Shown one piece after another: positions 1-53,667 of a stretch of DNA of 64,000 nt. The notes below the pieces were generated by a model. The model did not search any database. It was not told where the DNA came from and saw only the letters and a program-made list of their open reading frames with translations. A program made the position numbers and the translations under genes. The DNA lies in contig JAUYOL010000036.1 of the NCBI GenBank assembly GCA_030695905.1, positions 54,814 through 118,813 of the forward strand. The letters are read 5' to 3'. The first letter of the stretch is position 1; each line of letters opens with the position of its first letter. The DNA is from Candidatus Omnitrophota bacterium (GTDB taxonomy: Bacteria; Omnitrophota; Gorgyraeia; 2-01-FULL-45-10).

Positions 1-263
1 ATAAAACAATCGTCCTCGATCTTAATACCCCTGTGGATGAGGGCCTTGCTCATGATCTTTACATTGTTGCCTACCACAACTTTCCGGTCGATGAATACAC
101 CGTTACCTATTACACAATCTTCTCCTATTGCGGCATCACGCATGATCTGCGAAAAATGCCAGACCGCGGTCCCCTTTCCTATCCTGGCAGATCTATCCAC
201 TACAGCTGTTTTTGCTATGGTAACGCCCTTACCCGGATTTATCTTAGATTCTCTTTTGCCCAT
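1..263 (-). CDS. Hexapeptide-repeat (left-handed beta-helix) sugar N-/O-acyltransferase, N-terminal part; gene continues past window start
   Basis: Minus-strand translation from ATG at 263 gives MGKRESKINPGKGVTIAKTAVVDRSARIGKGTAVWHFSQIMRDAAIGEDCVIGNGVFIDRKVVVGNNVKIMSKALIHRG..., imperfect [LIV]-G-x-x-x-x hexapeptide repeats typical of PglD/WbpD/NeuD-type acetyltransferases. Absent from the ORF track because no stop lies inside the window. Overlaps the stop of the upstream gene by about 25 nt. Confidence 0.5.
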   Translation of the reverse strand, partial: MGKRESKINPGKGVTIAKTAVVDRSARIGKGTAVWHFSQIMRDAAIGEDCVIGNGVFIDRKVVVGNNVKIMSKALIHRGIKIEDDCF

Positions 264-1213
264 TCTACGTTTCTCCTCAATCCTTCCTCGATACCGATTT
301 TCGGTTTCCAGCCGAATAGTCTTTCTGCCAGGCCGTAATTACAATTCAATTTTCTAACCTGTGCCGCCCTGTCGGCAGTATGCACTATCCTGGAATCGCT
401 GCCTGAGATGTCTATTATCTTCTTTGCGATATAATTCACACTGACATCCTTACCATTTCCAAAGTTCACTGCATTTCCCACCGCTTTCGGATGAGAGCCC
501 ATAACAAGGAAGGCATCGATCATATCATCAACATATGTAAAATCCCTGGTCTGTTTGCCGTCACCGTGTATCGTCAATGTTTCGCCTTTCAGTGCAAGGT
601 CTATAAATTTCGGTATGACATCGTAAGTATGACGCGGCCCATAAGTATTAAATGGTCTTATAATAGCAACCGGTATGTGATAGGTATTCCAATAGGCATA
701 ACAATATCGGTCAGCAGCTACTTTGCTTGCCGCATATGGCGATGATGGATAAAGAGGGTGCTCTTCACTGATTCTCCTGCCCAGCGTCATTCCGTATATC
801 TCGCTCGACGAAGTGCATACGATCCTTTTTGTGCACTTCGTTTCCATAACAGCATGCAACATGTTCAGCGTCCCTAAAACATTAGTTTCCATTACTTCTA
901 AGGGATGCGTAAAGGAATTAGGCACATAAGCATCGGCCGCGAGATGGAATATAATCTCCGGACAATTATTCTTTACCAGCGTCCTGCAGTCAGCACTTGC
1001 TATATCGCCCGTTATTATCTCTGCAAACCTTCTTTCCAGCGGCTTTATGTTCTTGAGGTTATATTGAGTAGTCCCTATGGTAGAATTACCTCGCACATAA
1101 ACCGAGACTTTGGCGCCATCCGCAAGCAGTCTTTCCGCAAGATGCGAACCCATAAAACCGTCGGCCCCCGTAACCAATATTCTTTTACTTTTATAAAAAC
1201 TTTTCATCAACAA
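239..1213 (-). CDS. NAD-dependent epimerase/dehydratase (extended SDR), UDP-glucuronate decarboxylase (UXS / ArnA C-domain)-like
   Basis: N-terminal Rossmann motif ILVTGADGFMGSHLAERLL. TSSSEIYG (Ser-rich catalytic strand as in UXS, not the D/E of 4,6-dehydratases). YAASK YxxxK motif. GDGKQTRDFTYVDD motif shared by UXS, ArnA-C and RmlB. Confidence 0.7.
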   Translation of the reverse strand: MLMKSFYKSKRILVTGADGFMGSHLAERLLADGAKVSVYVRGNSTIGTTQYNLKNIKPLERRFAEIITGDIASADCRTLVKNNCPEIIFHLAADAYVPNSFTHPLEVMETNVLGTLNMLHAVMETKCTKRIVCTSSSEIYGMTLGRRISEEHPLYPSSPYAASKVAADRYCYAYWNTYHIPVAIIRPFNTYGPRHTYDVIPKFIDLALKGETLTIHGDGKQTRDFTYVDDMIDAFLVMGSHPKAVGNAVNFGNGKDVSVNYIAKKIIDISGSDSRIVHTADRAAQVRKLNCNYGLAERLFGWKPKIGIEEGLRRNVEWAKENLR

Positions 1214-2928
1214 TCCCCTTTCATTTTTACAATAAATTTTTTCATTATTTTTCTTATTGGAGGCCCTTTTAACTCTTCTGCAGGAGTAACCCGTTCAAGA
1301 TCAATTAATCGCCTTACGAACCTTTTAAGCATTTTATAACAATTCTCTTTTACAATGCTACCTAAAAAAGCGCTGCTCGGAAAGCCTGTTATGCATATGG
1401 CGCTGGTTGGATAGCAATTCTCGGCAGGTCTGCCTCTCCACCATTTATAAAATAACGTCATGTTGGAAGGTATGAGGGATTTTTTGGAAATAGCGTATTC
1501 CAAAATATTATTCAGTATGATCGGCACTTCTTTATATTTACTTGTATGAGCATACACGATAACGGGAAGGCCGCATGAGAGCATCTCATCTATAGCTCTC
1601 TTGTAATATGTTGTTATCTTATCGATATCCTTCATTCCCGCGTTTAAAAATAATTCGGGAGCTACGGGAAAGACCGGAACCTGCAGGACATTCGATATCC
1701 TGCTGCCCAAGCTGGGATATGTTGGAAGGCCCAAGTAATCATATGAAAACTCCGAAGAGTACTCATAGCCTTCGTCTTCTAATGCGCGCGAGAGCCCCGG
1801 ATTCCACCTTCCTGCGGGAGAAACGAAGCCCTTTGTAGGAATGCCGAGGCCATCAAAAAATAACCGCGCCTTTTTAATATTATGGCGGTTGCTTTCATAA
1901 TCGCCGTAGGTGTGATGATAAAACCCATGCGATTGTATATCGATACCCTCGTTGTGCCATCTTTTTATTAAGTCCTGTTTATCGGAAAAATTATCTGCAT
2001 TGACAAATATGGTTATTGCATCCCGGTATTTAGTAAGCAAAGAGCTGAATGCAGAGATAGTATCCTCATGATATTCGTCTGCATCTATGCGCAAACAAAA
2101 TATATTCGGATAGTCGATCTTCATGCCCTTCATGTAAGTAATAAGCGGCTTCTTTGCCACCTCTTCCACAACCGACACTGATCCGTCTCCAAAAACTTTG
2201 AGCACCGAATCGCGCTTCCGCCATTCTGACAGCCGTTTCTTTAGAGAGGCTTTTTCTTCGGGACGTGCCCTCCCGTATGTCTTTGAGAAATTACTGTCCT
2301 GCACCGAATAGACCTTAACTCCTGCCTCGATCCGGGAGATGGCCTCGTTTATTTTTTTCGCTCCCAGGTATATATTTTTTATCCTCAGACCGCCTATGGT
2401 ATCACAAGGGTGTACACGCAGCCTTTCCTGTACTATTACATCGCCGGTATCGAGAGATTCGTCTATGAAATGGATTGAGACGCCGACCCTGTCAGGCTCA
2501 TTATTGTAAAGGGCCCAAAACTCTGAGTCCGAACCGCGATAGAACGGCAGTATTCCAGAATGAAGATTTATAGCGCCTGCCGGCGCTATAGAGAATACCT
2601 CCTTCTTTAGTTTCCTCGTCCCGACAACCACAATCAGGTCGGGCCTGATCGAATTAAGAAAATCTACACTATCAGGATTATTGATATTTTCCGTAAACTT
2701 TACCTTTACTCCCCGAAAATCCCCGGCCATTTCTTCGAAACTTCCGTATTTTAATCTTCCCGCTGCTTTTAATAAAAGGCTTTTTATATCCGTCCTTAAT
2801 CGCTCTACGGGCTTTTTCGCTCCGCCTTTTTCATACACTATGGCGCTTACTGAACGGCCCATCCTTAAAAGTTCTTCGGCCACTATCCTGCCGTCTATAA
2901 TATCGCTTGTTAATATAGCCAGCTTCAT
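1207..2928 (-). CDS. Bifunctional protein: N-terminal formyltransferase domain (Fmt/ArnA-N/WbkC-like) fused to C-terminal polysaccharide deacetylase (NodB/ArnD-like) domain
   Basis: NLHSGILPFYRGSDSEFWALYNNE...HFIDESLDTGDV matches the N10-formyl-THF transferase catalytic region (N-x-H-x-SLLP-x-x-RG ... D-x-G-x-D). The C-terminal half carries RIDADEYHEDT and SHGFYHH metal-binding motifs of the NodB-type carbohydrate esterase 4 fold. 573 aa; 7-nt overlap with the downstream SDR gene. Confidence 0.6.
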   Translation of the reverse strand: MKLAILTSDIIDGRIVAEELLRMGRSVSAIVYEKGGAKKPVERLRTDIKSLLLKAAGRLKYGSFEEMAGDFRGVKVKFTENINNPDSVDFLNSIRPDLIVVVGTRKLKKEVFSIAPAGAINLHSGILPFYRGSDSEFWALYNNEPDRVGVSIHFIDESLDTGDVIVQERLRVHPCDTIGGLRIKNIYLGAKKINEAISRIEAGVKVYSVQDSNFSKTYGRARPEEKASLKKRLSEWRKRDSVLKVFGDGSVSVVEEVAKKPLITYMKGMKIDYPNIFCLRIDADEYHEDTISAFSSLLTKYRDAITIFVNADNFSDKQDLIKRWHNEGIDIQSHGFYHHTYGDYESNRHNIKKARLFFDGLGIPTKGFVSPAGRWNPGLSRALEDEGYEYSSEFSYDYLGLPTYPSLGSRISNVLQVPVFPVAPELFLNAGMKDIDKITTYYKRAIDEMLSCGLPVIVYAHTSKYKEVPIILNNILEYAISKKSLIPSNMTLFYKWWRGRPAENCYPTSAICITGFPSSAFLGSIVKENCYKMLKRFVRRLIDLERVTPAEELKGPPIRKIMKKFIVKMKGDC

Positions 2929-3845
2929 TTTTCCGCCTCAAATATCTGTCTTATCTTTTTGTCGGATACCGCTATTGCCCGCAAGACATCTCTTCTACGG
3001 CGGATGACCCTGGGCAACATGGAAAGCGCCCACAGGCTGCCGGCAACCAGGTCAGAACGCATGCGTAAGACATTGTAAATGATCAGGAGTGGATATAAGA
3101 ATATATTGGAAAAAAGAATCGCCGGGTCATGTATATTTTTCCATACAAATAGATACGCGTTTCGCGCCGCCATCTTCTGCCGCCTCCTCTCGCCATAGAC
3201 CTTCTTGAAAGATGCGGAATCTTCATGATACGCTACTGCGCTCTCCTCATAAACACACAGCCATCCCCTCTGCCATGCCCTATAGCACAGGTCCATGTCT
3301 TCGTATGTGCCCGGCAGGTATATTGGGTCATAGCCTCCCAGTGCCATGAATTTTTCTCTGTCATACGCGGCAGTGCTTCCCACGAAAAAGGTATAATCAT
3401 TTTTATTCATATTCTTTAACTTATTCCTGAACAATCCCGTTCTAACTGAAAAATCCATACATCCGCCGGTTATGTTCACACCCTCCTTATCCAGGATCTT
3501 TGGCGCAGCCACGAAAACCTTATCATCATTCAATCTCTCTATCAGGCGATCTATGCAGCCCGGCGCCATGTAAGCATCGTTATTCAAAAGAAGTATTATC
3601 TTTTCGGGTATCGTTCCCAAAAAATCATTGTATGATGCCACAATACGGTTGACCTTTGCAACCACAACATTAACTGAAGGAAAGTTCTCTTTTATAAAAG
3701 CGACGCTATTGTCGCTGCTCTTATTGTCAAGGACCGTAACTTTAACATTATGAGATGAGTTCCCCGCTTCTTTCACGACAAGCGGTAGATACTCCTTCAA
3801 TATATCTACGCCGTTATAATTCAATATTACTATATGAGCATCCAT
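2925..3845 (-). CDS. Glycosyltransferase family 2 (GT-A fold)
   Basis: 306-aa ORF; N-terminal VILNYNGVDILKEYL...LDNKSSDNS...LLNNDAY pattern (GT2 DxD region), then YDREKFMALGGYD typical of WbbL-type GT2 enzymes. Confidence 0.65.
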   Translation of the reverse strand: MDAHIVILNYNGVDILKEYLPLVVKEAGNSSHNVKVTVLDNKSSDNSVAFIKENFPSVNVVVAKVNRIVASYNDFLGTIPEKIILLLNNDAYMAPGCIDRLIERLNDDKVFVAAPKILDKEGVNITGGCMDFSVRTGLFRNKLKNMNKNDYTFFVGSTAAYDREKFMALGGYDPIYLPGTYEDMDLCYRAWQRGWLCVYEESAVAYHEDSASFKKVYGERRRQKMAARNAYLFVWKNIHDPAILFSNIFLYPLLIIYNVLRMRSDLVAGSLWALSMLPRVIRRRRDVLRAIAVSDKKIRQIFEAEK

Positions 3846-3855
3846 CTCTAATACC

Positions 3856-5418
3856 TTAGTCCTTTACCGCTGCTTTTGAATAAGTGCTCCGTACTATATA
3901 GGTAAGCGAAAATGCGACGGCTATGACAAGTAGCAATAACAGGCCAAAGACCTGCATATTATATTCGGACCTTATACCAAGCACCTTTAAAAACCAAAAA
4001 TCAAAATTATTATAACCAGACATACTACCTCTCACAGGAGAGATAAGTCTATAGTCGGGATTATATACAAACGGAATGTCTAACCCCTTTGTAATAAATA
4101 TTATACGGGTAATAACCATCTTCCATCCTCCCAGGATGGGTGAAAGATCCGGAATAAAATTTACCATGTATTCCGGGATGCCAAGCTTTTCTTTGACAAA
4201 GAAATAAAATTTTGACTGATTTATAAGCATGCACGGAAGCATGATGAAAAAACCGGCAATAGACAAAACCCACGCCGCTGATTTTGCGGTTAAATTTTTA
4301 TTATTTTCCAGAAAATCGCCTATCAAGAATATCAGAAATGCGACAGACGGCAAGAGATAGCGCGGCCCCCAGGCAAAGAGGGACCCGCGCCTGAAAGACA
4401 TGGCAAAAAATATAAGGCTGGATATGAAGATAAGCAGAAAAAGGACCGCCTCTTTTTTTCTTTTCCCGGAAATTCCTGCCAAGCCTATAAAAGACAGGAT
4501 AATGGGAAGATTAAAGATAAAAAATCCTTTTCCCGTGCTTATCAGATAATAATATAAGCCCTTTAGCACATGTGGCGCTTCCGCCACGCGCCCGGTGACC
4601 GCGAGCGCTTCCCTACTCCCGAATTTTAATAATTTTCCGTAAATAACATAATTATATGCTGTTATCAAAACAAGGAATACGGCTAAAACCGTTAACAATA
4701 CAGAGGCATCCTTAAGAATCTCCGCCTTGGCCCGCGCTCCGCTGAATATCAGGCAACACGCATAAATAGTAAAGGCCGGCAGGAAAATTATTGCGGTTGA
4801 CTTTGTAAAGACCGATAGCCCTATCGCAGTTCCTGCTAATAATAGATATTTTATTTCAGCGGAATTTTTGTACTTCAAGATAAAATAAAAAGCGAAAAGC
4901 ATGAATAATATCATGACCGGCTCCTCAAACCCGGTCCTCGAATATGCGGGGGCCATTGTTGCCAGACCGTAGATGAAGGCCAGGATAATAGAAATACGCC
5001 TTGAAAAAAAAAGATTTGTGGAAATAATAAATATCAGCAGACAATTTATTGCCGATACAAGAGGGTTGGAAAAAGAAACAAAGAACATTGTTATGAAATC
5101 ATGCGGGATGTTTTTAAAAAAATGCGCGGTTATATGACCTGTGTAAAAAAATACCGAAAGGATAACAGGCACGGCCAGACCTCCTCTGGAGCTGTATGTA
5201 TTTCCGCCACTTCCCTCAATGCCCGACTTTTTCATATAGCCAAACCCATCTATATCGGTAGGGCTGTCATTAAATGCCAGGCTATGATTTAGCACGATGC
5301 TTTTTGCGGTAAGGTAATCCTCATAACCGTCTCCGCCGTAATGACCGATTGAAAATAAACAATACAAAGACATAAAGAATACCGCTATGGCTATGGCGCA
5401 CATTCTTTGATTATTCAT
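3856..5418 (-). CDS. Polytopic membrane glycosyltransferase, GT-C fold (PMT_2/ArnT-like)
   Basis: More than 10 predicted TM helices plus periplasmic loops. Start moved to internal Met (MNNQRM...) preceded by AAGGAG 9 nt upstream; the annotated longer ORF (to 5445) overlaps the upstream gene by 35 nt. Confidence 0.45.
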   Translation of the reverse strand: MNNQRMCAIAIAVFFMSLYCLFSIGHYGGDGYEDYLTAKSIVLNHSLAFNDSPTDIDGFGYMKKSGIEGSGGNTYSSRGGLAVPVILSVFFYTGHITAHFFKNIPHDFITMFFVSFSNPLVSAINCLLIFIISTNLFFSRRISIILAFIYGLATMAPAYSRTGFEEPVMILFMLFAFYFILKYKNSAEIKYLLLAGTAIGLSVFTKSTAIIFLPAFTIYACCLIFSGARAKAEILKDASVLLTVLAVFLVLITAYNYVIYGKLLKFGSREALAVTGRVAEAPHVLKGLYYYLISTGKGFFIFNLPIILSFIGLAGISGKRKKEAVLFLLIFISSLIFFAMSFRRGSLFAWGPRYLLPSVAFLIFLIGDFLENNKNLTAKSAAWVLSIAGFFIMLPCMLINQSKFYFFVKEKLGIPEYMVNFIPDLSPILGGWKMVITRIIFITKGLDIPFVYNPDYRLISPVRGSMSGYNNFDFWFLKVLGIRSEYNMQVFGLLLLLVIAVAFSLTYIVRSTYSKAAVKD

Positions 5419-6352
5419 GCGAAAGAGCTCCTTTTTTCTTATCAAAACCGTGCCTCAATAAGATAAAACTGAATACAGGCCCCAATATGAACGTCAATGT
5501 CATCGTTATTATTCTGTCGGTAAGAGTCGCGAGCGCGCCGGATGCGAATGAGACATCGGTCAATGTAGAGACAGCTCCTACCGCAGCTTCTTTGATCCCG
5601 TAGGCGCCCGGGACTATGCTCATGAAATGCGTTATGATATTAAATGGAGCTATAAGCACGCAGGAAGTGAATGTAACGGGCAAAGAAAATATCCTGAATA
5701 GCACAAAATAACGCGCCGCCATAGACAATATTATCAGGAGATCCCAGAAAGAAAGGATCGTGATTGTCCTGGCGTCTTTACGAAGCACTTCCCATCCTTC
5801 AAAAAATTCATTTATCTTTACAAAGAGGCCCTTCTCGGGGAGTTTAATCCTCGGCATTAAAAAAAGCACCAGAGACCCTGCGATCATGCCAAAAAATAGC
5901 ACTAGAAAAATTATTTTATCTATGCGGTGCGGCAGACCGGAGCATAAACTGAAAGCGAAACCAACCAATCCCGAAGCAAGGATCGTGATCAATCCTGTTG
6001 TGATCAATATACCCATGTATTTATTATAATCCAGATCATACTTGTTTTTTAAATACAGGCCGCAGGCCGCAGTGCCGCTTTTTGGGGCGAGATAATTATA
6101 GAAATTATTTACGCATGACATGCCGAACCATTCCTTAAATAAAAGCCTTATATTGAACGACTCCAGTATCTTCTTGGTCTTAAGCCCAAGGCATACTTTA
6201 TTAGCAATATTAAGCAGCACCAGCAAAACAAGGAAATACGGCTTTATTGAGACCGCCTCTTTGATCTGATTAAAGTTCTTCTTTATATAAAAGGCAAACG
6301 CTGCCGTTATAATAATAATCAGCACTAGTTGTGCTATGTTTTTTTTAGACAT
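5411..6352 (-). CDS. Flippase-like integral membrane protein (lysylphosphatidylglycerol-synthase TM-region / UPF0104 family)
   Basis: 313 aa, about 8 TM helices, no soluble domain. Resembles the flippase-like domain commonly adjacent to GT2 polyprenyl-phosphate glycosyltransferases. Confidence 0.45.
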   Translation of the reverse strand: MSKKNIAQLVLIIIITAAFAFYIKKNFNQIKEAVSIKPYFLVLLVLLNIANKVCLGLKTKKILESFNIRLLFKEWFGMSCVNNFYNYLAPKSGTAACGLYLKNKYDLDYNKYMGILITTGLITILASGLVGFAFSLCSGLPHRIDKIIFLVLFFGMIAGSLVLFLMPRIKLPEKGLFVKINEFFEGWEVLRKDARTITILSFWDLLIILSMAARYFVLFRIFSLPVTFTSCVLIAPFNIITHFMSIVPGAYGIKEAAVGAVSTLTDVSFASGALATLTDRIITMTLTFILGPVFSFILLRHGFDKKKGALSHE

Positions 6353-6974
6353 ATTTTCCGATGGCCTTTTCCAAATAATTTTTTACCACACCTTTGATAT
6401 TGTCCATACTGCCTTCGGCTATCCTCACATTAGGCACTGCCCTGTACATATCGTCATACAGAACGCTCTTGACTATGAAGTATTCCTTATCGTATTCCCT
6501 TTTTCTGTCATAAGCCAGGGCCGGCTCCGACCTTAGAAAAAATACTATGTCCGGCTGTATTATACATTTCTTAAACATGACAAGGAAACCTTTTCTCATA
6601 ATGCCCAAATACACGCCCTGCACGATATCGTCATAAAAATATCTGTCCGTAACTATGTTATGCTGTATATTATTTTTATATCTGTGATACTGCAAGTTAA
6701 AACACAAAAGATTGATGAACAGAACCATCTTTTTCATGCATTTCGAAATAAAAATAGATATACCGCCTTTTTTCTTTCTGAGATTTTCTTCCAGAGAGCG
6801 TTGTGCGTTTTTTGAAACTTTCCCGATAACCTTATGGAGTATCTTATGATAAAAGGAATCCCGTATAATATGCGAATATTCTGCCGTAATATTTCTTTTT
6901 CTTAAATAATCCAAGACAAATTCAGCAGCTGTAGTTTTGCCTGAACCATCGATCCCCGAAAAAGCTATTATCAC
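6345..6974 (-). CDS. P-loop nucleoside/nucleotide kinase, thymidylate-kinase-like fold
   Basis: N-terminal IIAFSGIDGSGKTT Walker A, identical in form to the dTMP kinase signature. 209 aa. 8-nt overlap with the downstream gene and 2-nt gap to upstream rtcB-like gene. Confidence 0.5.
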   Translation of the reverse strand: MIIAFSGIDGSGKTTAAEFVLDYLRKRNITAEYSHIIRDSFYHKILHKVIGKVSKNAQRSLEENLRKKKGGISIFISKCMKKMVLFINLLCFNLQYHRYKNNIQHNIVTDRYFYDDIVQGVYLGIMRKGFLVMFKKCIIQPDIVFFLRSEPALAYDRKREYDKEYFIVKSVLYDDMYRAVPNVRIAEGSMDNIKGVVKNYLEKAIGKYV

Positions 6975-6975
6975 T

Positions 6976-8568
6976 TTATCTCCACCCTTTAAGGTCCGCT
7001 AACGGCCGTAGCCTGGCCACCGGCTCTGCTATATTATTTTTTGAGATAACATCCAATATTTTATCTACATCCTTAAATGCCTTAGGCGCTTCTTCCGCGA
7101 TATAACCATTGCCATAATCGTAAATCTTGACATTGTTTCCGCGCACTTCATCGATCACATTCTTTGCGTCAAAAATTTGCCTTGCCGCACCTCTATCCAC
7201 CAGCCTTCCCGTGCCATGGCATGTCGAATAATAGGAGCCGGCGCATCCTTTTGTGGCAGCGCATAAAAAGGAATGCCGCCCCAAAGAACTGGGTAAAAGG
7301 ACCGGCTGCCCTGTCTTCGAAAAAACAGGATGGCCGCTGAAATAGCGCGGCGGATATGCCCTGCAGGCGCCGTTCCTGTGCACATAATATTCCTCTCCGT
7401 CTATCCGTTCTTTCTGTAATGCATCGTGGTTACCGTCATACAGGATATTCAGGCAACCGCCGTCCTTGCCAAACGTCTTTTGCAGTGCGCGCTGTATGAC
7501 AGAGGCCATATACGCCCTGTTCGCGTAACCAAAATTAATAGCGCAATAAGTACTTATAAGGTACGAACGCCCTTCTTCGTTATTTGCGTCTATCCCTTCG
7601 AATATAAAATTCTTTTTTTTGTTCCACTTATCCACCTTCCAGTATACAGTTGATTTGATCCTGTTTAAATTTTTATTAACTGACCTCAAGAAATCCCTGA
7701 GAATATATGATGACCCGAACATGCTGTAATAAAGCTTTTTATATATCTGCTGTGCGCCGAAAAGCTTTTTTGCTTTCTGAGAATAGAAATCGAAGATCGA
7801 CTGTCCAAAATCTCTTGAATCGCTGTGTATCATGAAGCAAACCTGGCTCTTTTTAATGCCGAAAAGGCCGGCTACATCTTTATTGATTATATCGTCGATT
7901 ACCTGAAGTTCTATAAAGTGATTGCCATAACCCAGGACCCCTATGCTGAAAAGGCCTATGTTCTGACACGCCTTCGGCACATAGGACATTATTTCAGTTA
8001 TATCCGTTTTATCATTCTTAAAAAGAGACCCGTTGTTCTCAAAATTCATCAGGTCCGACGGATCAATGCCATGTTTTTCTACGGCCCAGCCCGCGCCTTC
8101 TTTTATGATATGCTTAAGATCGTCATGCGAAATTATAGGAGCATTTCTCATGGAGACCGAGATGTTCTTCTGCAAATATCCGAATATAGAATCCAGCGCG
8201 TTTTCGTTTATATCACCTGACGAAAATTCCGTCTTAATAAAAGACATTGCGCAGTTCGCGTTCACGAACTTCGGAAATATCCTGTCCTTTGAAAGAACGA
8301 CTACGCCCGTAGGCGTATGGTAGGAATATTTGAAATGAACATCCGGCAGGGCCACTATCGGCCTGACAACGCCCTCGGTCCCGGCCATCTTCTCAAGTAT
8401 AGTAGACGTATTTTCGTCTATACCGTAATCCGGGTGTGTAAATATCCTGACATTGCTGCTCATCGTTAAATCATCCCCCGATCTCAGAGTATATCTTATC
8501 GTACTCGGCCGCCATTGCGTCCATTGTAAAACATCTCTTAACACCATCCTGAGATTTATTTGCGACAT
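6976..8568 (-). CDS. rtcB: RtcB-family 3'-phosphate RNA ligase homolog (530 aa, N-terminal extension)
   Basis: Ordered RtcB motifs: ALPDVHFKYSYHTPTGVV (cf. MPDVHLGKGSTIG), NANCAM (metal Cys), LGYGNHFIE (GNHFIE), MIHSDSRDFG (HSGSRG), YDGNHDAL (HHN), STCHGTGR (SHGAGR), APKAFKDVD (PMAYKDID). Confidence 0.8.
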   Translation of the reverse strand: MSQINLRMVLRDVLQWTQWRPSTIRYTLRSGDDLTMSSNVRIFTHPDYGIDENTSTILEKMAGTEGVVRPIVALPDVHFKYSYHTPTGVVVLSKDRIFPKFVNANCAMSFIKTEFSSGDINENALDSIFGYLQKNISVSMRNAPIISHDDLKHIIKEGAGWAVEKHGIDPSDLMNFENNGSLFKNDKTDITEIMSYVPKACQNIGLFSIGVLGYGNHFIELQVIDDIINKDVAGLFGIKKSQVCFMIHSDSRDFGQSIFDFYSQKAKKLFGAQQIYKKLYYSMFGSSYILRDFLRSVNKNLNRIKSTVYWKVDKWNKKKNFIFEGIDANNEEGRSYLISTYCAINFGYANRAYMASVIQRALQKTFGKDGGCLNILYDGNHDALQKERIDGEEYYVHRNGACRAYPPRYFSGHPVFSKTGQPVLLPSSLGRHSFLCAATKGCAGSYYSTCHGTGRLVDRGAARQIFDAKNVIDEVRGNNVKIYDYGNGYIAEEAPKAFKDVDKILDVISKNNIAEPVARLRPLADLKGWR

Positions 8569-9595
8569 CCGAGTAAAACTTTGCGTCCTTAAGACATCTT
8601 ATCAGGTTTTCAGCATATGCATCCGCGCCATCTCCGCTTATTTTAATGCCGATGCCGTGCCTTTCAAGCTCGTCCAACGGCGCGATATTGCCGTATATTA
8701 CAGGCTTGCCTAATACGGCTAATTCGAGTAAAACAAGCGGTATCTCTAAAATTCCTACCATCGGGCGCCTTACAGGCATGATGCCTGCCGCGCAACTATT
8801 AAAAAGCGCGGGCATATCCTCAACAGTATCCAGCAACGTAAAGTTTTCTACGCCATTATTTTTCAGCAATACGGCAAACTCTTTCTTTAGCTTCGCGTCT
8901 TCTTTCGTCCTCACGCGGCATGCCATCACGAATTCGGCATTTCGTATTTTTTTCGTAACCAGTAAAGCTATTTTCAGTAGCTCAGAAAATGAGTAGGAGT
9001 CATTTAATATCTTATATGTGCCCGGATATATTACGCGTGGTAAAGGCGCGTGTTTTAAATCGGAACCGCGCGGCGCGCCAAACCGCTGCGTCTCGACTCC
9101 CGGATAGACCCTGATTACATTTTTCACGCCGAGTGCGGTAAGTTTTTCTTTAGCGTAATCGGAGTGCACCACTACACGGTCGGCAAAGAATAAAGACGAT
9201 ATCGGCACGTTAGCGTTCTTATTAAATAAAGTATGTATCGAAGTTAATATCTGCACCGATTTCTTTCCATTCTTTTTTACGAATCTACTGTAAAAGCCGG
9301 AAAAATACGGCTGCGGAGTGATAAAAAATTGGAACACGTCTATTTTTTTAGCGATTAAGACTGTTATAAATAGCACATAAAGCTTCTGCAGAATCGACAT
9401 GCTGTGCCTGCCCGGCTTCTGGAAAAGCGAAGGAATAAATGCTATGTTTGTTTCCGGAGCAAATTTATTTCCAAGCGATGACACAAAATAAAATAAATGC
9501 TTTTTTATGCGCTGCGCAATACCCATGACAATATTTTTCGCGCCATCATTGTAAGGCGGACTGATAGGGGCCATTGTTATCGTAAATATCTTCAC
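8471..9595 (-). CDS. Glycosyltransferase, GT-B fold (family 1/4-like)
   Basis: 374 aa; C-terminal ...GILEIPLVLLELAVLGKPVIYGN... resembles the GT4 E-x7-E donor-binding region; N-terminal half is Rossmann-like. Confidence 0.5.
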   Translation of the reverse strand: MKIFTITMAPISPPYNDGAKNIVMGIAQRIKKHLFYFVSSLGNKFAPETNIAFIPSLFQKPGRHSMSILQKLYVLFITVLIAKKIDVFQFFITPQPYFSGFYSRFVKKNGKKSVQILTSIHTLFNKNANVPISSLFFADRVVVHSDYAKEKLTALGVKNVIRVYPGVETQRFGAPRGSDLKHAPLPRVIYPGTYKILNDSYSFSELLKIALLVTKKIRNAEFVMACRVRTKEDAKLKKEFAVLLKNNGVENFTLLDTVEDMPALFNSCAAGIMPVRRPMVGILEIPLVLLELAVLGKPVIYGNIAPLDELERHGIGIKISGDGADAYAENLIRCLKDAKFYSDVANKSQDGVKRCFTMDAMAAEYDKIYSEIGG

Positions 9596-11076
9596 TTTTT
9601 CCGCGCCTTTGGACTGATAAATACGTCCTTTAATCTTGATGCGATACCTGATTCGACTATCACCTTTTGAAATATTTCCGTGTAGTAAAGCCGCGCAAGG
9701 ATCTTGCTGATAAAAACCGGCAGCCCTATGCCACTGAATATGTTTTCCATCTCAGCTGAAAATTTAAGTTTTGTTTTCAGGGTATGTTTTTTCGCTTTTT
9801 TATTAAATTCATTATATAATTTTTTTCTTAAGCCGGCTGACATTTCAGGGGTCTCAAACACAGGGTTATTGACCCAGTGCGAAGAATGATTAAGATATGT
9901 TTCTTCTTTCTCTCTGAAATATTTGTTCTGTTTGACCCATTCATAAAGCTCGGTTCCGGGAAACGGTATGGGGTTATAAAATCTTATATCAAATACCGGA
10001 TATTTAACGGCCAATTGCAAAGATTCATAGGCGTCTTTTTCGGTCTCATGAGGCAGGCCCAATATAAAAAACAAAGTGACCATATAACCAAGGCCACATG
10101 CGTCGCTTATGGCCTTTTCCACGTCTGAAAGCTTTTCGCCCTTCTTAATAATGCTCAGCATCTTTTCGCTGCCGCTCTCTACGCCAAAAGCCAGGTAATT
10201 AAAACCCGCTTCCTTCATTGCGATAAGAGTTTGTTTGTCTATTGTATCTGCTCTTATCCCATTTCTGCAGCTTAGTATGAGCCCGGAGAGTTTTCTTTTT
10301 TTGATATCAGCGCATATATCCAATACCCTCTGTTTCTGAAAAGAAAAGTTGTCATCCACTATGTTGAATATCCTCATACCGTCTTTTTTATACCAGTACT
10401 CAATTTCGTCGACGACCGAAGACGGCGACCTTGTCCTTAACTTTCTCCCTATCGTGACCTTAACCGGACAAAATATGCAGCTATAAGGGCAACCTCTGCT
10501 TGTCAAAAGCGGTATGAAGCGTGGGTACTTATCCTTTTCTAAATATTCGTACTTTGGGAAGCCTATGTTATCAAGATCGATCTTGAAATCCCTGTCTCCG
10601 GAATACAGAACCTTGCCGCCTTCCCTGTAAAGCAACCCCTTTATCTCTTCCGGATTTTTCATACCGCTGCATAGTTCCAATATAGTATCTTCGCCTTCAA
10701 GCGCAACGCCATAATCTATTGAAATGCATTCTTCAAGGGTCCGCGCCCTAAAAGTGGATATGTGCGGCCCGCCTGCCACTATCTTTATATTTTTAAAGCT
10801 ATCTTTTATAAAATCGGCAAGCGCATAATGATCCCTATATTTGAAGCTCATCATACTTATGCCGATAAGGTCCGGATTGAACGAGCTTATGGACTCAAGA
10901 AGATCCCTATTGCTATAACCAAGGGACATGTCAAAGACCTTATGCGCTATTTTTCCTTTCTTTAACGATTCGGAAATATAGCCCAGGCCTGCCGGCAGCC
11001 CCACATATTCATAATGCGACTGCTTATAGTTCGGCCGTATCAGCAATACTCTTTTATAAGCATTTAAAGGCTTCAT
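9592..11076 (-). CDS. Cobalamin (B12)-binding radical SAM enzyme (class B)
   Basis: N-terminal Rossmann-type B12-binding domain (VLLIRPNY...DLIGISMM...). Radical-SAM cluster motif LLTSRGCPYSCIFCPV (CxxxCxxC). 494 aa. Confidence 0.8.
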   Translation of the reverse strand: MKPLNAYKRVLLIRPNYKQSHYEYVGLPAGLGYISESLKKGKIAHKVFDMSLGYSNRDLLESISSFNPDLIGISMMSFKYRDHYALADFIKDSFKNIKIVAGGPHISTFRARTLEECISIDYGVALEGEDTILELCSGMKNPEEIKGLLYREGGKVLYSGDRDFKIDLDNIGFPKYEYLEKDKYPRFIPLLTSRGCPYSCIFCPVKVTIGRKLRTRSPSSVVDEIEYWYKKDGMRIFNIVDDNFSFQKQRVLDICADIKKRKLSGLILSCRNGIRADTIDKQTLIAMKEAGFNYLAFGVESGSEKMLSIIKKGEKLSDVEKAISDACGLGYMVTLFFILGLPHETEKDAYESLQLAVKYPVFDIRFYNPIPFPGTELYEWVKQNKYFREKEETYLNHSSHWVNNPVFETPEMSAGLRKKLYNEFNKKAKKHTLKTKLKFSAEMENIFSGIGLPVFISKILARLYYTEIFQKVIVESGIASRLKDVFISPKARKK

Positions 11077-12179: not shown

Positions 12180-13124
12180 TTAAGGCTTAGACTGCTCCTT
12201 TCTCTGCCTATACAGGATCTCTTCCGATAGTTTCCTGTTAGCGGCAATAATATCAGCCAGAAGACCTGTAAATATCAGCTGAGCTCCTATTATGGTCAGG
12301 ATCAGCGCCAGGATAAGAGATTGCACGTGCCCGCCCCTCTTTACTCCGAAAAAGAAGAAATACAGGTATCTGCCACCTAATATGGCTGCACCGCCTAAGA
12401 ATAACGACCCTATCTTAACAAAGAACTTCATCGGCTCATACATAAGATATATGCGCAATATCGTTGCAATGGACCTCAGAATATATGAGGCGGTATTTTT
12501 AATCAATCGCGATTCCCGCAGCTTTGGGTTTGCTTTTATATCTATATGCGCCACAGGGATTTCCTTCCTCCCCGCCTGAATCACCGTTTCCAAAGTATAG
12601 GTGTAAGTAGAAAATACATTTAACCGCAATGCAGCTTCTCTCGTATAAGCCCTGAATCCGCTTGTCACATCGGGGATAGCGGTATTCGAGAACTTCCTGA
12701 CCACCCAGCTTCCGAGCTGCTGCAAGACTTTTTTCAGCAACGAAAAATGCTGTATCGCGAACATGTCCCTGCAGCCTATGGTAATCTCTGCCTTGCCGTT
12801 TAATATAGGCCCTATAAGCCGCGGAATATCCTCGCCCTTGTACTGATTATCGCCATCCGTATTCACTATTATATCTGCGCCAAGAGCTAGGCTCTTTTCC
12901 AAGCCTCTCCTGAATGCCTCGGCCAACCCCCTATGCGAAGGCATGTCTACTATATAATCAACGCCCAGTTTTTTTGCGGTTTCAACGGTAGCATCGCCGC
13001 TCCCGTCATTTATGACTAATATTTTAATATCGTCGATACCTTTTATCCTTCTTGGTATGCTGTTTATAACTACCGGTAAAGTATTCTCTTCGTTATAACA
13101 CGGTATCTGAACTACGAGTTTCAT
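12180..13124 (-). CDS. GT2 polyprenyl-phosphate glycosyltransferase (DPM1/ArnC/CsbB-like) with C-terminal TM helices
   Basis: VVQIPCYNEENTL...ILVINDGSGDATVE...DGDNQY (DxD) typical of dolichyl/undecaprenyl-phosphate sugar synthases. Two C-terminal TM helices (IGSLFLGGAAILGG..., LILALILTIIGAQLIFTGLL). Confidence 0.8.
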   Translation of the reverse strand: MKLVVQIPCYNEENTLPVVINSIPRRIKGIDDIKILVINDGSGDATVETAKKLGVDYIVDMPSHRGLAEAFRRGLEKSLALGADIIVNTDGDNQYKGEDIPRLIGPILNGKAEITIGCRDMFAIQHFSLLKKVLQQLGSWVVRKFSNTAIPDVTSGFRAYTREAALRLNVFSTYTYTLETVIQAGRKEIPVAHIDIKANPKLRESRLIKNTASYILRSIATILRIYLMYEPMKFFVKIGSLFLGGAAILGGRYLYFFFFGVKRGGHVQSLILALILTIIGAQLIFTGLLADIIAANRKLSEEILYRQRKEQSKP

Positions 13125-17031: not shown

Positions 17032-18561
17032 CTATGCCTTCTCTTTGGTAAAATCCCAAACTGCCTCTTTTCTGGTGATAAAGTAAAAGATTTTCCTCAA
17101 AAGACTATAAAGCCTGCGGGAAAACACGCTATCATTTTCTGCCAGACCAATCAATGGATAAAATATTTTGGGTAATTTTAAATACATCTGAAAAGTTTTG
17201 AAAATACCGTTCAGCTCTTTTCTGGACACGTCTTTTAAGTTAAGGCAGGAGTCTGTCCTGTAACCGTCCTCGAACTCTCTTTCTTTTGATATATCAAAAA
17301 TATTTTCTTGAACACACAGGCCTCTAACCTTTGTGCCGCGATAGGGATGTAAAAAGGTAAGCGTGGTAGTCGTAGGGTTGGCCTTCCGGTTTAATTCAAT
17401 GGTTTCAAATATATTTTTCCTGGTCTCATGCGGTATACCTATGATATTGAAAGATGAGCTGCGCACTTTATATTTATGCGCCAATTTAAAAACATTGATA
17501 ATATGCTCATCGGAACAACGACGCTCAAAAATCTCTTCCCTTATTTTTGGATTACCGGACTCGAGCCCGACGCAAATATTGCGGCAGCCGGCGTCAACAA
17601 GTTTGGCAAACTGTTTCTCTCGGACCAGCTCTGCGTGTAAACTTACATTGAAAGGGATCTTTACGTTCTTTTTATAAAGACGACAGAACTCGTCCAAAAC
17701 ATCCTCTTTGTGCAGAGGAAAAATATCATCTACAAAGAACGCAAAATTAAGATTATATTTTTCCTTGCATTCCGCTATCTCTTTAACCGCCAGATCCGGG
17801 CGTTTTATACGATATAGCGCACCCTTGTTTTTATAGATATTGGACAGGGCAAAATTGGCGCAATAAGTACAGCGGAAAAGACAACCGCGCGTGAGAGAAA
17901 ATATACCCATGCGGTACATCTTACCCCCCAGGGGACGTATTAAATGGCGCTCGTCAAACAAGCTCCAGTCAGGTTGCAGCAAAGAATCCAGATCGATGAG
18001 CGACCGCACATCATTACGATAGACTTTCCCATTGTGTTTTATCCATATATTGCCGACGTTTAGGATGTCTTTGCCTTCAGCGAATTTTGAGCACAATTCC
18101 GGAACGGCTTCTTCGCCTTCTCCGACGCAGATAGCATCCACGCAATCTTCAGCGATAACTTCCTCGGGAGAAAAAGTGACCGTAGGTCCGCCGAACAAAA
18201 CAAAGATATTCTTATAGTCCCTCTTTATCGCCCTCGCAAGCTCTAAACCAAAACGGTAATTAGGGTCAACGACGCTGATACCGACGACATCCGGAACGCA
18301 CTTTTCTATTTTTTTAAAAAGTTCGCCGATAACATCCGCCTCCTGCTCAATAATATTGTATTCAGAGAAGTCGGGATTACGCACCTGCAGAGAATATGCC
18401 CTTAATTGATCATCGCTGACGCCGCTACCGCATTTCACAAAAGTCGTGTCAAAAACATCCACCTGATGCCCGGCGGCCTTAAGATAAGAGATTAGATATC
18501 CTACCCCCAGCGGCATGCGGGTCGTCATCGTTTTATTGGGATATATAAGTAAAATCTTCAT
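17032..18561 (-). CDS. Cobalamin (B12)-binding radical SAM enzyme (class B)
   Basis: MKILLIYPN...PDVVGISVV B12-binding Rossmann region. FSLTRGCLFRCTYCAN radical-SAM motif. 509 aa. Confidence 0.8.
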   Translation of the reverse strand: MKILLIYPNKTMTTRMPLGVGYLISYLKAAGHQVDVFDTTFVKCGSGVSDDQLRAYSLQVRNPDFSEYNIIEQEADVIGELFKKIEKCVPDVVGISVVDPNYRFGLELARAIKRDYKNIFVLFGGPTVTFSPEEVIAEDCVDAICVGEGEEAVPELCSKFAEGKDILNVGNIWIKHNGKVYRNDVRSLIDLDSLLQPDWSLFDERHLIRPLGGKMYRMGIFSLTRGCLFRCTYCANFALSNIYKNKGALYRIKRPDLAVKEIAECKEKYNLNFAFFVDDIFPLHKEDVLDEFCRLYKKNVKIPFNVSLHAELVREKQFAKLVDAGCRNICVGLESGNPKIREEIFERRCSDEHIINVFKLAHKYKVRSSSFNIIGIPHETRKNIFETIELNRKANPTTTTLTFLHPYRGTKVRGLCVQENIFDISKEREFEDGYRTDSCLNLKDVSRKELNGIFKTFQMYLKLPKIFYPLIGLAENDSVFSRRLYSLLRKIFYFITRKEAVWDFTKEKA

Positions 18562-19592: not shown

Positions 19593-20641
19593 AGATCTGA
19601 AACACCGCCGGCATTTATGTTCTTATCATCGGCATATATCCTCTGGACCAGGTCCATTGTCTTTATCGCGTCATCCACCCCGCCATTAGTGATCGGCTTA
19701 TCCTCTGCCACGCACTCTACAAACTCGCTGATCTCAGCTATCCAGGAGTCGTCGTCATCATAATAAACCATATTTTCCTGAGGATTAGGCATGGGGTAAT
19801 TATTTTTGTCAAAAATACACCTGGCTATCTTTAATGTCTCCCTGCCATATGTCCGCGTTGAGGAAAGGATCCCGTCTATCTCCAAATACCCTTTTTCCAT
19901 ATATATCTCCAGCAGAAATTTATGCCTCCACTGTGTTGCCGAAGAATGAATCATCGCGGTCTGCCCGGTCCCGGCGTTGCGCAGCAACGCGAAGACATTA
20001 TCCTCGACTTCCACCTTCCAGTACGAATTACCGACAAAGCTTTTAACCTCATCAAATTCTCCGCAAAAATAACGGAAGAGGTCGAGCATGTGGATCCCCT
20101 GGTCTATCAATATACCCCCTCCGGACAGCGCTTTCTTATTGCGCCAATCTAAATCATAACCGGCTCCTCCGGCTTTGCCATATATGCCACGCATCCACAT
20201 TATATTCCCTAATCTGGCGCTCTTTACAATTGACCTGGCCTCTTTAACACCTTCGTGATAACGGTGGTTAAAACCGAATTTTACCTTTACCGAAGGATTG
20301 TTGACGGATGAGCGCTGAATCGCCTTTACATCTTCCAGGGTACAGCCTGGCGGTTTCTCGCTGAACACGTGAATCCCGCGCGATATAGCCTCAACGGCAA
20401 TCTCCGGTATGTGCCGGTTATAAGAACATATGAACACGATATCCGGTTTTTTATCCAAAACTTTTCTAAAATCATCGAAAAACGGCACGCCCGGCTGCTG
20501 CCACACACCGGGGTTGATATCGCACACGCCCGTCAATTCAAGGGCGGGATGGCGATCGACGCATTCATGGCGTATCTTTCCCACCTTGCCGTAGCCGATA
20601 ATCCCGACCTTATACTTTTTTTTCAATCTGTTCGTCGTCAT
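19571..20641 (-). CDS. Gfo/Idh/MocA-family NAD(P)-dependent oxidoreductase (sugar dehydrogenase)
   Basis: KVGIIGYGKVGKIRHE...ELTGVCD N-terminal dinucleotide-binding motif. EKP active-site motif (FSEKPPG). Confidence 0.8.
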   Translation of the reverse strand: MTTNRLKKKYKVGIIGYGKVGKIRHECVDRHPALELTGVCDINPGVWQQPGVPFFDDFRKVLDKKPDIVFICSYNRHIPEIAVEAISRGIHVFSEKPPGCTLEDVKAIQRSSVNNPSVKVKFGFNHRYHEGVKEARSIVKSARLGNIMWMRGIYGKAGGAGYDLDWRNKKALSGGGILIDQGIHMLDLFRYFCGEFDEVKSFVGNSYWKVEVEDNVFALLRNAGTGQTAMIHSSATQWRHKFLLEIYMEKGYLEIDGILSSTRTYGRETLKIARCIFDKNNYPMPNPQENMVYYDDDDSWIAEISEFVECVAEDKPITNGGVDDAIKTMDLVQRIYADDKNINAGGVSDLCGRGKI

Positions 20642-22134: not shown

Positions 22135-22951
22135 ATTTTAAGTTGGTTTTACCCAGCATGCCGTATTTCTCCGGCATCAGGACGTTAAAAGGTATATGTA
22201 TTATATCTATAACCGGATCGACCGACCTTACAAACTCGTGTATTTGGGCCAGATTACCGGGAGTATCAGTGACTTTTGGAATCAGGGGCACCCTTACGGA
22301 TACATGTTTCTTTGCCTCATGCAAACGCCTAAAATTATCCAAAATACATCCGTTTGACCTGCCTGTATATTTTTCATGAAGCTCGGGATCGATAAATTTC
22401 AGATCAAACAGGAAAAGATCGACAAAAGGCAAAATTTTCATGAAGGCTTCGGGCTCGGAATAACCGCTGGTATCCAAGGCCACGTTTATTCCGTTTTTCT
22501 CCGCAAGACTTGCCAATTCACAGGAAAAGTCTATCTGAAACAGCGGTTCGCCCCCGGAAATCGTTACCCCTCCTCCGGACATCTCATAATAACTTTTATC
22601 GCTAAGCGCCTGATGAATAATCTCCTCGGCTGGCAATTCCATGCCTGACCATAAAAGCGCTTTCAAACTGCAATTATTGACACACAAACCGCAACGATCG
22701 CAATCATCGCTTTTAAAAACAATCTTATCCTGCCAGTCAAAACATTTTTTCGAACAAAGCTCCACGCATCTGCGGCACCCTGCGCAACGCTCGCGCAAAA
22801 ACAAGACCTCGGAAAACCGCGGGATATTTTCCGGATTATGGCACCAGACACAATTAAGGGGGCAGCCTTTTAAAAAAATCGTGGTACGGATGCCCGGCCC
22901 GTCATGCAGGGAAAACTTTTGTACCCTGGTAATAAAACCTTTTGCGCTCAT
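22121..22951 (-). CDS. Glycyl-radical-enzyme activating enzyme (PflA family) with two ferredoxin-like 4Fe-4S motifs
   Basis: HDGPGIRTTIFLKGCPLNCVWCHNPE (classic GRE-AE CxxxCxxC). Two additional clusters, CAGCRRCVELCSKKC and CDRCGLCVNNCS. 4-nt overlap with the upstream GRE gene. Confidence 0.85.
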   Translation of the reverse strand: MSAKGFITRVQKFSLHDGPGIRTTIFLKGCPLNCVWCHNPENIPRFSEVLFLRERCAGCRRCVELCSKKCFDWQDKIVFKSDDCDRCGLCVNNCSLKALLWSGMELPAEEIIHQALSDKSYYEMSGGGVTISGGEPLFQIDFSCELASLAEKNGINVALDTSGYSEPEAFMKILPFVDLFLFDLKFIDPELHEKYTGRSNGCILDNFRRLHEAKKHVSVRVPLIPKVTDTPGNLAQIHEFVRSVDPVIDIIHIPFNVLMPEKYGMLGKTNLKYETF

Positions 22952-40268: not shown

Positions 40269-40270
40269 CT

Positions 40271-52947: not shown

Positions 52948-52965
52948 GATTAGGATCTCCTTGAA

Positions 52966-53664: not shown

Positions 53665-53667
53665 GCC

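Follow-up and report, generated by a model that had tools for sequence, protein, structure and literature searches.

A predicted N-deacetylase/N-formyltransferase fusion in an Omnitrophota envelope-glycan locus: a candidate module for acetyl-to-formyl exchange with a variable partner domain

In a 64,000-nucleotide stretch of DNA from a Candidatus Omnitrophota bacterium (contig JAUYOL010000036.1, positions 54,814 to 118,813; hereafter the window, in which every open reading frame (ORF) lies on the minus strand), we analyzed a gene for a protein of 573 amino acids (aa) that joins an N-terminal formyltransferase (FT) domain to a C-terminal deacetylase domain of the NodB fold, which resembles carbohydrate esterase family 4 (CE4) and is termed CE4L here. 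We favor, with somewhat less than even confidence, a reading in which this protein would be a cytoplasmic bifunctional N-deacetylase/N-formyltransferase that swaps acetyl for formyl on an amino sugar of an envelope glycan. The fusion protein and the glycosyltransferase (GT) GT2a, whose gene appears translationally coupled to it, would work as a three-step unit: GT2a would add an N-acetylhexosamine (HexNAc) to a membrane-bound polyprenyl-linked glycan intermediate, the metal-dependent NodB-fold domain would hydrolyze the N-acetyl group and free the amine, and the ArnA/WbkC-like domain would then move a formyl group from N10-formyl-tetrahydrofolate onto it. As a net outcome, one residue of an envelope glycan resembling lipopolysaccharide or O-antigen would have its acetyl group exchanged for formyl (−14 Da); in sister lineages, an S-adenosylmethionine (SAM)-dependent methyltransferase (MT) would provide the cap or the amine would be left free, and the module would thus diversify the N-substituent of a single sugar. 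We infer substrate, reaction order, formyl donor and final glycan, like every function discussed below, from sequence, predicted structure and gene context. The parts of the proposed unit are as follows.

1207–2928, minus strand: gene of the FT-CE4L fusion protein, 573 aa (ORF and Pfam domains).
2218..2928, minus strand: N-formyltransferase domain, aa 1–237 of the fusion (Pfam PF00551, phmmer against the PDB, Foldseek).
1207..2217, minus strand: NodB-fold (CE4-like) deacetylase domain CE4L, aa ~238–573, range including the stop codon (Pfam PF01522, Foldseek).
2925..3845, minus strand: GT2 glycosyltransferase 'GT2a', 306 aa (Pfam GT2, E 1.7e-12).

An earlier note on this DNA, made from the letters and reading frames, had described ORF 1207–2928 as a formyltransferase joined to a NodB/ArnD-type deacetylase. 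This architecture was borne out, both Pfam domains scoring above their gathering thresholds: Formyl_trans_N (PF00551) at aa 80–181 (E 1.9e-17, 64 bits, cut-off 26.1) and Polysacc_deac_1 (PF01522) at aa 288–390 (E 1e-9, 38.9 bits, cut-off 23.1). The AlphaFold2 model of the whole 573-aa protein (pLDDT 92.8, pTM 0.88) displays two confidently predicted domains. The fusion is neither a chance event nor an assembly artefact, because a protein of the same sequence has been deposited from an Omnitrophota metagenome-assembled genome, annotated just as 'formyltransferase family protein', and because a search for the fusion elsewhere yielded about 30 full-length homologues (41–74% identity) with both domains. 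None of the curated NCBIfam equivalogs covers it; on the equivalog for bifunctional ArnA (NF005998), the protein reaches 75 bits, far under the cut-off of 777, and it carries no fused short-chain dehydrogenase/reductase (SDR). Our literature searches found neither a described formyltransferase-deacetylase fusion nor formyl sugars of Omnitrophota.

The FT domain, for which the Pfam scan gave no Formyl_trans_C subdomain (PF02911), is by score closer to sugar N-formyltransferases than to Met-tRNA (Fmt) or GAR (PurN) formyltransferases. Among PDB sequences searched with phmmer, the FT domain of ArnA was the best match (70 bits, E 2e-18) and WbkC the second (63 bits), with PseJ and LgrA also among the matches, while Fmt reached ~43 and PurN ~41 bits (about 41–44 overall); the margin is narrower with NCBIfam models (ArnA 75 versus fmt 60 bits). 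The top Foldseek matches were likewise structures of the ArnA FT domain (5j63/2bln; rmsd ~3 Å, 26–27% identity). N121, H123 and D160 align to the catalytic Asn, His and Asp of the ArnA motif NLHGSLLPKYRG...DAG, and this catalytic set, together with the folate loop HxxxLPxYRG, is kept in 19 of the 19 FT copies examined.

In the CE4L domain, which ends in a conserved basic C-terminal helix, residues R280, D282, D284, H334, H338, P371, G373 and H461 are invariant across 59 family sequences. The Asp-His-His metal triad and the catalytic Asp/His of CE4 enzymes are thereby intact: D282/D284 lie in RIDAD, H334/H338 in SHGFYH and H461 in YAHT, and the motif residues are present in nearly all related loci. 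Both outcomes that the earlier note had named as refuting its domain reading, a missing metal triad and an FT domain nearer to Met-tRNA formyltransferases, are contradicted here, the second by score. At the level of sequence, phmmer against the PDB returned marginal CE4 matches alone (E ~0.09) and no match to ArnD, no ArnD model was among the NCBIfam matches of the fusion protein at E ≤ 0.01, and the hidden Markov model (HMM) of the family scored 5 bits against E. coli ArnD, with an hhalign probability of 9.8%. With HMM and hhalign scores this weak, membership in the ArnD family was not established, the similarity holding at the fold level only. The AlphaFold2 model of the C-terminal domain alone is a NodB barrel (pLDDT 93.5), and its top Foldseek matches all had the NodB fold (E down to 1e-10), including 3rxz, PuuE (3cl6), 1z7a, 4m1b, ArnD itself (8t0j; rank 8, E 1e-8, TM score 0.63), 3s6o and 3qbu. 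A review of NodB architectures names 3RXZ, 3QBU, 1Z7A and 3S6O as the closest relatives of ArnD (PMC10967932). Because our structural neighbors include this very set, the predicted fold places the domain in ArnD's structural subclass, in the NodB1.2 neighborhood; CE4L and ArnD also have the motif order RIDxD, HxxxH, IPV, xYxH in common. No hydrophobic signal-peptide stretch was visible in the N-termini of the family sequences inspected and, since the partner domains also need cytoplasmic cofactors, the fusion enzyme is taken to act in the cytoplasm.

The presence of PuuE and its relatives among the top fold matches bears on a quite different explanation, in which the NodB fold would act on a non-carbohydrate amide, as in the PuuE allantoinases, or on a lipid head group, the FT domain would formylate a lipid or peptide amine, as LgrA sets a precedent for formyltransferase domains on non-sugar amines, and the adjacent MprF-type flippase-like protein (family LPG_synthase_TM) would flip the product. 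We consider this very improbable, as the D-H-H metal set is invariant here, whereas PuuE is metal-independent (PMC10967932), and as the module sits between glycosyltransferases in every locus and is itself fused to GT domains in proteins P0066, P0034 and P0093.

The favored acetyl-to-formyl exchange draws further on comparison of about 30 distinct related loci (L numbers below), which were collected by exact-protein look-ups and a scan of GTDB species representatives and whose ORFs were labelled by BLASTP against reference proteins. A recurring gene order emerged: [GT4, B12-radical SAM, GT4, RtcB, dTMPK-like], LPG_synthase_TM, GT-C-like, GT2a and {X}+CE4L, followed by [SDR, hexapeptide acetyltransferase, (alpha/alpha)6 protein], UDP-GlcNAc 2-epimerase, GT4, GT9, GT4, GT4 and Bac_transf. 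The priming phosphoglycosyl transferase, the GT4s and the GT9 share an operon with the fusion. What varies is X, the partner of CE4L:

Fused formyltransferase: 13 loci.
Separate adjacent formyltransferase gene: L015, L019, L023 and, as a broken copy, L018.
Fused SAM methyltransferase (MT-CE4L): L007.
GT2a-MT-CE4L triple fusion: L006 (protein P0066).
GT2k-MT adjoining or fused with CE4L: L026, L027, L030, L036.
CE4L followed by GT2a-MT: L022.
NodU/CmcH carbamoyltransferase gene ahead of a stand-alone CE4L: L008.
No partner (CE4L alone): L017.
NDOM, an uncharacterized N-terminal domain of ~180 aa: L032, L033.

Methyltransferase-type partners thus occur in seven loci. GT2a lies directly upstream of the module in nearly all related loci and is part of the polypeptide in the triple fusion of L006. 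The unit is reduced to a GT and an FT-NDOM-CE4L protein in L035, and in L036 a Wzx-type flippase takes the place of the LPG_synthase_TM/GT-C pair. The block of SDR, acetyltransferase and (alpha/alpha)6 protein is missing from L004, L013, L020, L021, L026 and L031, which keep the CE4L gene and four of which (L004, L013, L020, L021) have the FT fusion; the SDR, first gene of this separable sub-block, is a partner that the fusion can do without.

A profile search of 1.8 billion representatives retrieved 342 proteins at E < 1e-30, the family being largely confined to Omnitrophota and neighboring candidate phyla. Among the proteins gathered, NDOM-CE4L (about 500 aa) is the commonest architecture (90 proteins), ahead of CE4L alone (69), FT-CE4L (32) and MT-CE4L (10); further orders are GT-FT-NDOM-CE4L (P0093), FT-NDOM-CE4L (P0115), MT-NDOM-CE4L (P0151) and NDOM-CE4L-MT (P0160). 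NDOM, which gave no Pfam match, is found in L032 (9464–11071), L033 (2446–4035), P0067 and about 90 representatives, from Omnitrophota, WOR-3 and Margulisiibacteriota. In a neighbor-joining tree of the CE4L domain, which is unbootstrapped, star-like and to be read as a hint only, FT-fused, MT-fused and unfused forms interleave, and for this reason the tree suggests that the partner has been replaced on an orthologous CE4L scaffold.

Around the unit, the window encodes the following genes, to which the alternative readings of the locus refer.

3856..5445, minus strand: GT-C-like (PMT_2) polytopic membrane protein, 520–529 aa (Pfam PMT_2, E 1.2e-9).
5411..6352, minus strand: LPG_synthase_TM or 'flippase-like' membrane protein, 313 aa (Pfam PF03706, E 1.4e-23).
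239..1207 (ORF 239–1213), minus strand: extended SDR, 322 aa from the ATG at 1207 (Pfam Epimerase, E 7e-59).
1..263, minus strand: 5' part of a gene for a hexapeptide-repeat acyltransferase, starting with the ATG at 263 and running off the left edge (reading frame).

The GT2, the GT-C membrane transferase and the flippase-like protein that had been proposed upstream of the fusion were each recovered by Pfam, and the hexapeptide acyltransferase gene expected at the window edge was confirmed as well, its full form on the parent contig (L001) encoding 191 aa (Pfam Hexapep, E 1.6e-22). The GT2a stop overlaps the start of the fusion gene as ATGA, an arrangement of translational coupling, and the likely ATG start of the SDR at 1207 shares bases with the TGA that ends the fusion gene. 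The family profile of GT2a scores K4CP, a GT2 that acts on glycans, best (38.9 bits), with SunS and TarS also ahead of DPMS (20.9 bits) and ArnC (18.6 bits); by family and profile scores it is not a processive chitin synthase of the NodC type. The GT-C-like protein reaches 68 bits, under the cut-off, with the NCBIfam model of the LA_3751/3752 family; its gene is found in most loci and is not adjacent to the module in L003, L010, L011, L035 and L036. The LPG_synthase_TM protein passed the NCBIfam 'flippase-like domain' model TIGR00374 (44.4 versus 43.2 bits), and its gene is conserved upstream in most loci.

Upstream of the latter gene, the window (6345–8568, minus strand) encodes an RtcB RNA-ligase homologue (Pfam RtcB, 287 bits) and a dTMP-kinase-like P-loop protein. 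An RtcB homologue between glycosyltransferase genes was also seen in L004, L005, L008, L009, L013, L016, L019, L020, L022 and L032, and the pairing with the P-loop protein in eight loci including the window. Compared with Pyrococcus RtcB, the homologue has counterparts of the metal-binding Cys/His residues and of the His that accepts GMP, with Asn at the Asp95 position; one may speculate that it forms phosphodiester links in the glycan. On the other side, just past the left edge of the window, lies the gene of a 377-aa (alpha/alpha)6-barrel protein (L001 13238–14371) with weak GH76/GH88/GH47/LanC-like matches, which always follows the hexapeptide acetyltransferase; in L008 (10972–12528), the two are fused into one protein of 518 aa.

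For the SDR, the designation as UXS/ArnA-C-like is the one weak point in the earlier note's description of the genes. The protein is an SDR and contains the motifs TSSSEIYG and GDGKQTRDFTYVDD, and its Ser-Glu motif (SSSEIYG) resembles the 'TSE' of UXS/ArnA rather than the 'TDE' of RmlB. In family scores, however, other enzymes come first: with NCBIfam models, the LegB type reached 247, dTDP-glucose 4,6-dehydratase 195, the UXS type 87 and ArnA 75 bits, and among PDB sequences Pal (183 bits) and RmlB (159 bits) preceded UXS1 (152 bits), so that UXS is close in the PDB comparison and the C-terminal half of ArnA far lower.

The same note had gone on to read the locus as a shuffled form of the polymyxin-resistance pathway of 4-amino-4-deoxy-L-arabinose (Ara4N; Arn genes) with a transient formyl group and with the SDR as the split-off decarboxylase of ArnA, a view that finds poor support in the loci, scores and synteny. 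In such a pathway, the FT domain would formylate a nucleoside diphosphate (NDP)-4-amino sugar, the GT2 would move it to undecaprenyl phosphate, the NodB domain would deformylate it, and the flippase-like and GT-C proteins would pass the cationic sugar on to an acceptor such as lipid A. This reading accounts for ArnA-FT being the best match of the FT domain in sequence and structure, for the ArnD-like fold of the C-terminal domain (3rxz, 1z7a, 3s6o, 3qbu and 8t0j) and for the GT2, flippase-like and GT-C genes adjoining the fusion in the window and in most loci, and triple fusions of the type GT-FT-CE4L fit its order of steps too. It is nevertheless improbable in our view. A DegT/ArnB-type aminotransferase was found within 10 kb of the module in none of the ~30 related loci, and the nearest in the window is 36 kb from the fusion gene; the window encodes no UDP-glucose dehydrogenase (Ugd, UDPG_MGDP_dh) as a source of UDP-GlcA. 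The SDR is dispensable, and it was not taken as the decarboxylase half of ArnA in view of its family scores, its absence in six loci and the lack of Ugd in the window. The C-terminal domain is not an ArnD member at the sequence level. GT2a was rejected as an ArnC/GtrB-type polyprenyl-phosphate transferase on its profile scores (ArnC far behind K4CP), and tblastn with ArnC missed it, finding instead four other GT2 genes of the window (12180–13124, 41658–42476, 47923–48636 and 52966–53664); with ArnT as query, the best GT-C was encoded at 48639–50012, not the one of the module. In L035, L036, L003 and L010, LPG_synthase_TM and GT-C are not beside the module at all. In other loci, moreover, a methyltransferase stands where the formyltransferase would be, a carbamoyltransferase comes with the module, or the position is empty. 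A cap-then-uncap cycle becomes untenable because a methyltransferase replaces the FT at the same syntenic position, and since formyl is the only removable cap, non-formyl partners make no sense in it. An alternative offered in the same place, an N-formyl sugar as end product, agrees with the proposal favored here.

That proposal, deacetylation followed by formylation of the freed amine, turns on where the amine comes from. The FT domain needs a free amine and, with no DegT gene within 10 kb, CE4L would be the only local source of it. The genes of glycosyltransferase, deacetylase and capping enzyme neighbor one another in every locus and are joined in several architectures, and we therefore regard the three-step unit as the most economical model. 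The substrate could be a polyprenyl-PP-oligosaccharide, as suggested by the similarities of GT2a, the Bac_transf/GT4/GT9/Wzy_C context and the Wzx-type flippase in L036; by analogy with the Lgm and Arn systems, it could alternatively be a polyprenyl-P-monosaccharide handed to the flippase-like and GT-C proteins.

Amines might also be supplied from further away. In an arrangement reminiscent of WbkC or PseJ, the FT domain would formylate an NDP-amino sugar made by distal aminotransferases, the NodB domain would deacetylate another residue, and the fusion would merely co-localize two tailoring enzymes. To our knowledge, all characterized bacterial sugar N-formyltransferases (ArnA, WbkC, FdtF, QdtF, VioF, WlaRD) use NDP-amino sugars made by aminotransferases, which speaks for this arrangement, as do the rank of WbkC as second-best PDB match and the additional match to PseJ. 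Suppliers are at hand in the window, which holds a GDP-mannose 4,6-dehydratase (Gmd), three DegT genes (at 39–40, 51–52 and 60–61 kb, set in a nonulosonic-acid cluster, a Gmd-linked route and a third sugar-nucleotide block, respectively) and a full nonulosonic-acid cluster; candidates would be GDP-perosamine, via Gmd (53668–54663) and DegT (51404–52534), or an intermediate of pseudaminic/legionaminic acid synthesis. We still judge it unlikely, if less so than the Arn-like pathway: the supply genes lie 36–60 kb from the fusion, none occurs within 10 kb in the other loci, the minimal unit of L035 has no amino-sugar genes in cis, and the formyltransferase, always fused to or directly beside CE4L and joined to it in several architectures, argues for action on the same residue.

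Several points weigh against acetyl-to-formyl exchange by the fusion protein itself. The organism is uncultured. The nearest characterized relatives of its FT domain, ArnA and WbkC, have nucleotide sugars as substrates rather than amines linked to a glycan or lipid, and the three DegT genes and Gmd farther off in the window could supply an NDP-amino sugar in trans. The HexNAc donor of GT2a is an assumption of the model. The NodU family consists of O-carbamoyltransferases, and the carbamoyltransferase of L008 need not target an amine; the methyltransferases could likewise be O-methyltransferases, so that partner variability is no proof that all partners hit the amine. The tree of the CE4L domain, finally, is poorly resolved. 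More tentatively still than for the single protein, we propose that the family may represent a second bacterial route to N-formyl and N-methyl amino sugars that dispenses with both aminotransferase and NDP-amino sugar: a lipid-linked HexNAc would be deacetylated and re-capped in situ by an enzyme reminiscent of the N-deacetylase/N-sulfotransferase NDST, with the capping domain repeatedly exchanged on the NodB scaffold.

The remainder of the window is rich in further glycan genes. Seven GT-C-type genes, five of the PMT_2, one of the YfhO and one of the GT87 family, run in one direction (3856–5445, 42343–44064, 44061–46319, 46241–47926, 48639–50012, 50020–51423 and 56055–57818), and the four small ArnC-like GT2 genes found with tblastn accompany GT-C genes, which suggests that several three-component systems for periplasmic glycosylation coexist here. 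Inside the glycan cluster, a glycyl-radical enzyme (PFL-like plus Gly_radical, 22948–24960), an unusual class for sugar biosynthesis, is encoded with its radical-SAM activase (22121–22951) beside an SDR, a CMP-sugar-type cytidylyltransferase and an HpcH/HpaI aldolase (22121–27237). Four B12-binding radical SAM enzymes (9592–11076, 17032–18561, 20638–22134 and 54710–56044), which may perform C-methylation or other radical tailoring of sugars, add to a further radical SAM enzyme at 63198–63920; in many related loci, one of the B12-binding genes is conserved next to the GT4 genes that precede the module. A nonulosonic acid block of the pseudaminic/legionaminic type (32976–41275) looks complete, comprising a PseB-like dehydratase, a DegT aminotransferase, NeuB, two CMP-transferases, a GNAT domain fused to a xylose-isomerase-like TIM barrel and a HisF/HisH-like pair. 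Within 51404–54663, Gmd, a small GT2 gene and DegT lie together and possibly constitute a GDP-perosamine-type route that might supply a WbkC-like formyltransferase in trans. A NodU/CmcH-type carbamoyltransferase gene at 57805–59399 looks interrupted: a gap of ~190 nucleotides lies between a 79-aa N-terminal ORF (59160–59399) and one of 386 aa that includes Carbam_trans_C but only the latter half of Carbam_trans_N, reflecting either a pseudogene or an assembly/frameshift error.

Omnitrophota are a phylum of ultra-small, partly host-dependent bacteria, and N-formyl groups on surface sugars are strong antigenic determinants. We know of no description of a bacterial route in which N-formyl sugars arise through a coupled deacetylase and the capping domain is exchangeable. 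If our reading is correct, a deacetylase-formyltransferase acting after glycosyl transfer would embody a different biosynthetic logic for N-formyl sugars, extend NodB/NodS chemistry and give bacteria a counterpart of NDST. The exchangeable capping domain would allow plug-and-play variation of surface-glycan chemistry, the enzymes would be new tools for editing glycan N-substituents in glycoengineering, and the envelope-glycan loci of Omnitrophota, which are very large and unexplored, would gain a first functional handle. If it is wrong, the locus would be an ordinary, though elaborate, polysaccharide cluster.

Among known systems, the Arn set (ArnA-FT, ArnC, ArnD, ArnE/F, ArnT) is similar in that the FT domain is closest to ArnA-FT, the deacetylase is by predicted fold of the ArnD subclass, and a GT2, a putative flippase and a GT-C protein are encoded alongside. 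It differs in that no linked ArnB, no Ugd in the window and no decarboxylase fusion of the ArnA type occur here, in that the GT2 does not resemble ArnC and the candidate flippase resembles MprF instead of ArnE/F, and in that the FT is interchangeable with a methyltransferase. The Lgm system of Bordetella was originally proposed to comprise an ArnC-like LgmA, an ArnD-like LgmC that deacetylates undecaprenyl phosphate-linked GlcNAc, and an ArnT-like LgmB. The genes lgmA-C are required for modification of lipid A with glucosamine (PMC4993483). By described functions alone, Lgm resembles the partner-less locus L017, with GT2, deacetylase and GT-C and no aminotransferase; Lgm leaves a free cationic amine, whereas here an FT is fused to the deacetylase. 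In the Nod set (NodC/NodB/NodS/NodU/NodA), a GT2 and a cytoplasmic NodB deacetylase are followed by enzymes acting on the deacetylated residue, NodS N-methylating only after deacetylation by NodB (PMC5080398), and GT2, NodB fold, class I methyltransferase and NodU/CmcH carbamoyltransferase recur as enzyme classes in the related loci. Unlike in that set, the GT2 is not of the NodC type, the acyl group would be a folate-derived formyl instead of a fatty acyl delivered by acyl carrier protein, the enzymes are fused, and the operon is one for an envelope glycan, not for a signaling molecule. NDST1 combines in one polypeptide a metal-dependent, NodB-like (beta/alpha)7 deacetylase that has an Asp-His-His triad with a transferase that re-derivatizes the freed amine, deacetylation preceding sulfation (PMC10864358). 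It is eukaryotic, resides in the Golgi lumen, acts on a polymer with sulfate from 3'-phosphoadenosine 5'-phosphosulfate and has the deacetylase ahead of the transferase, whereas the fusion described here is bacterial, predicted to be cytoplasmic, with formyl as the putative cap and an N-terminal transferase. The resemblance would thus be one of logic only, with no common origin of the two fusions implied. The parts of the module are familiar families, and the logic proposed for it has precedents in Nod-factor tailoring and in NDST.

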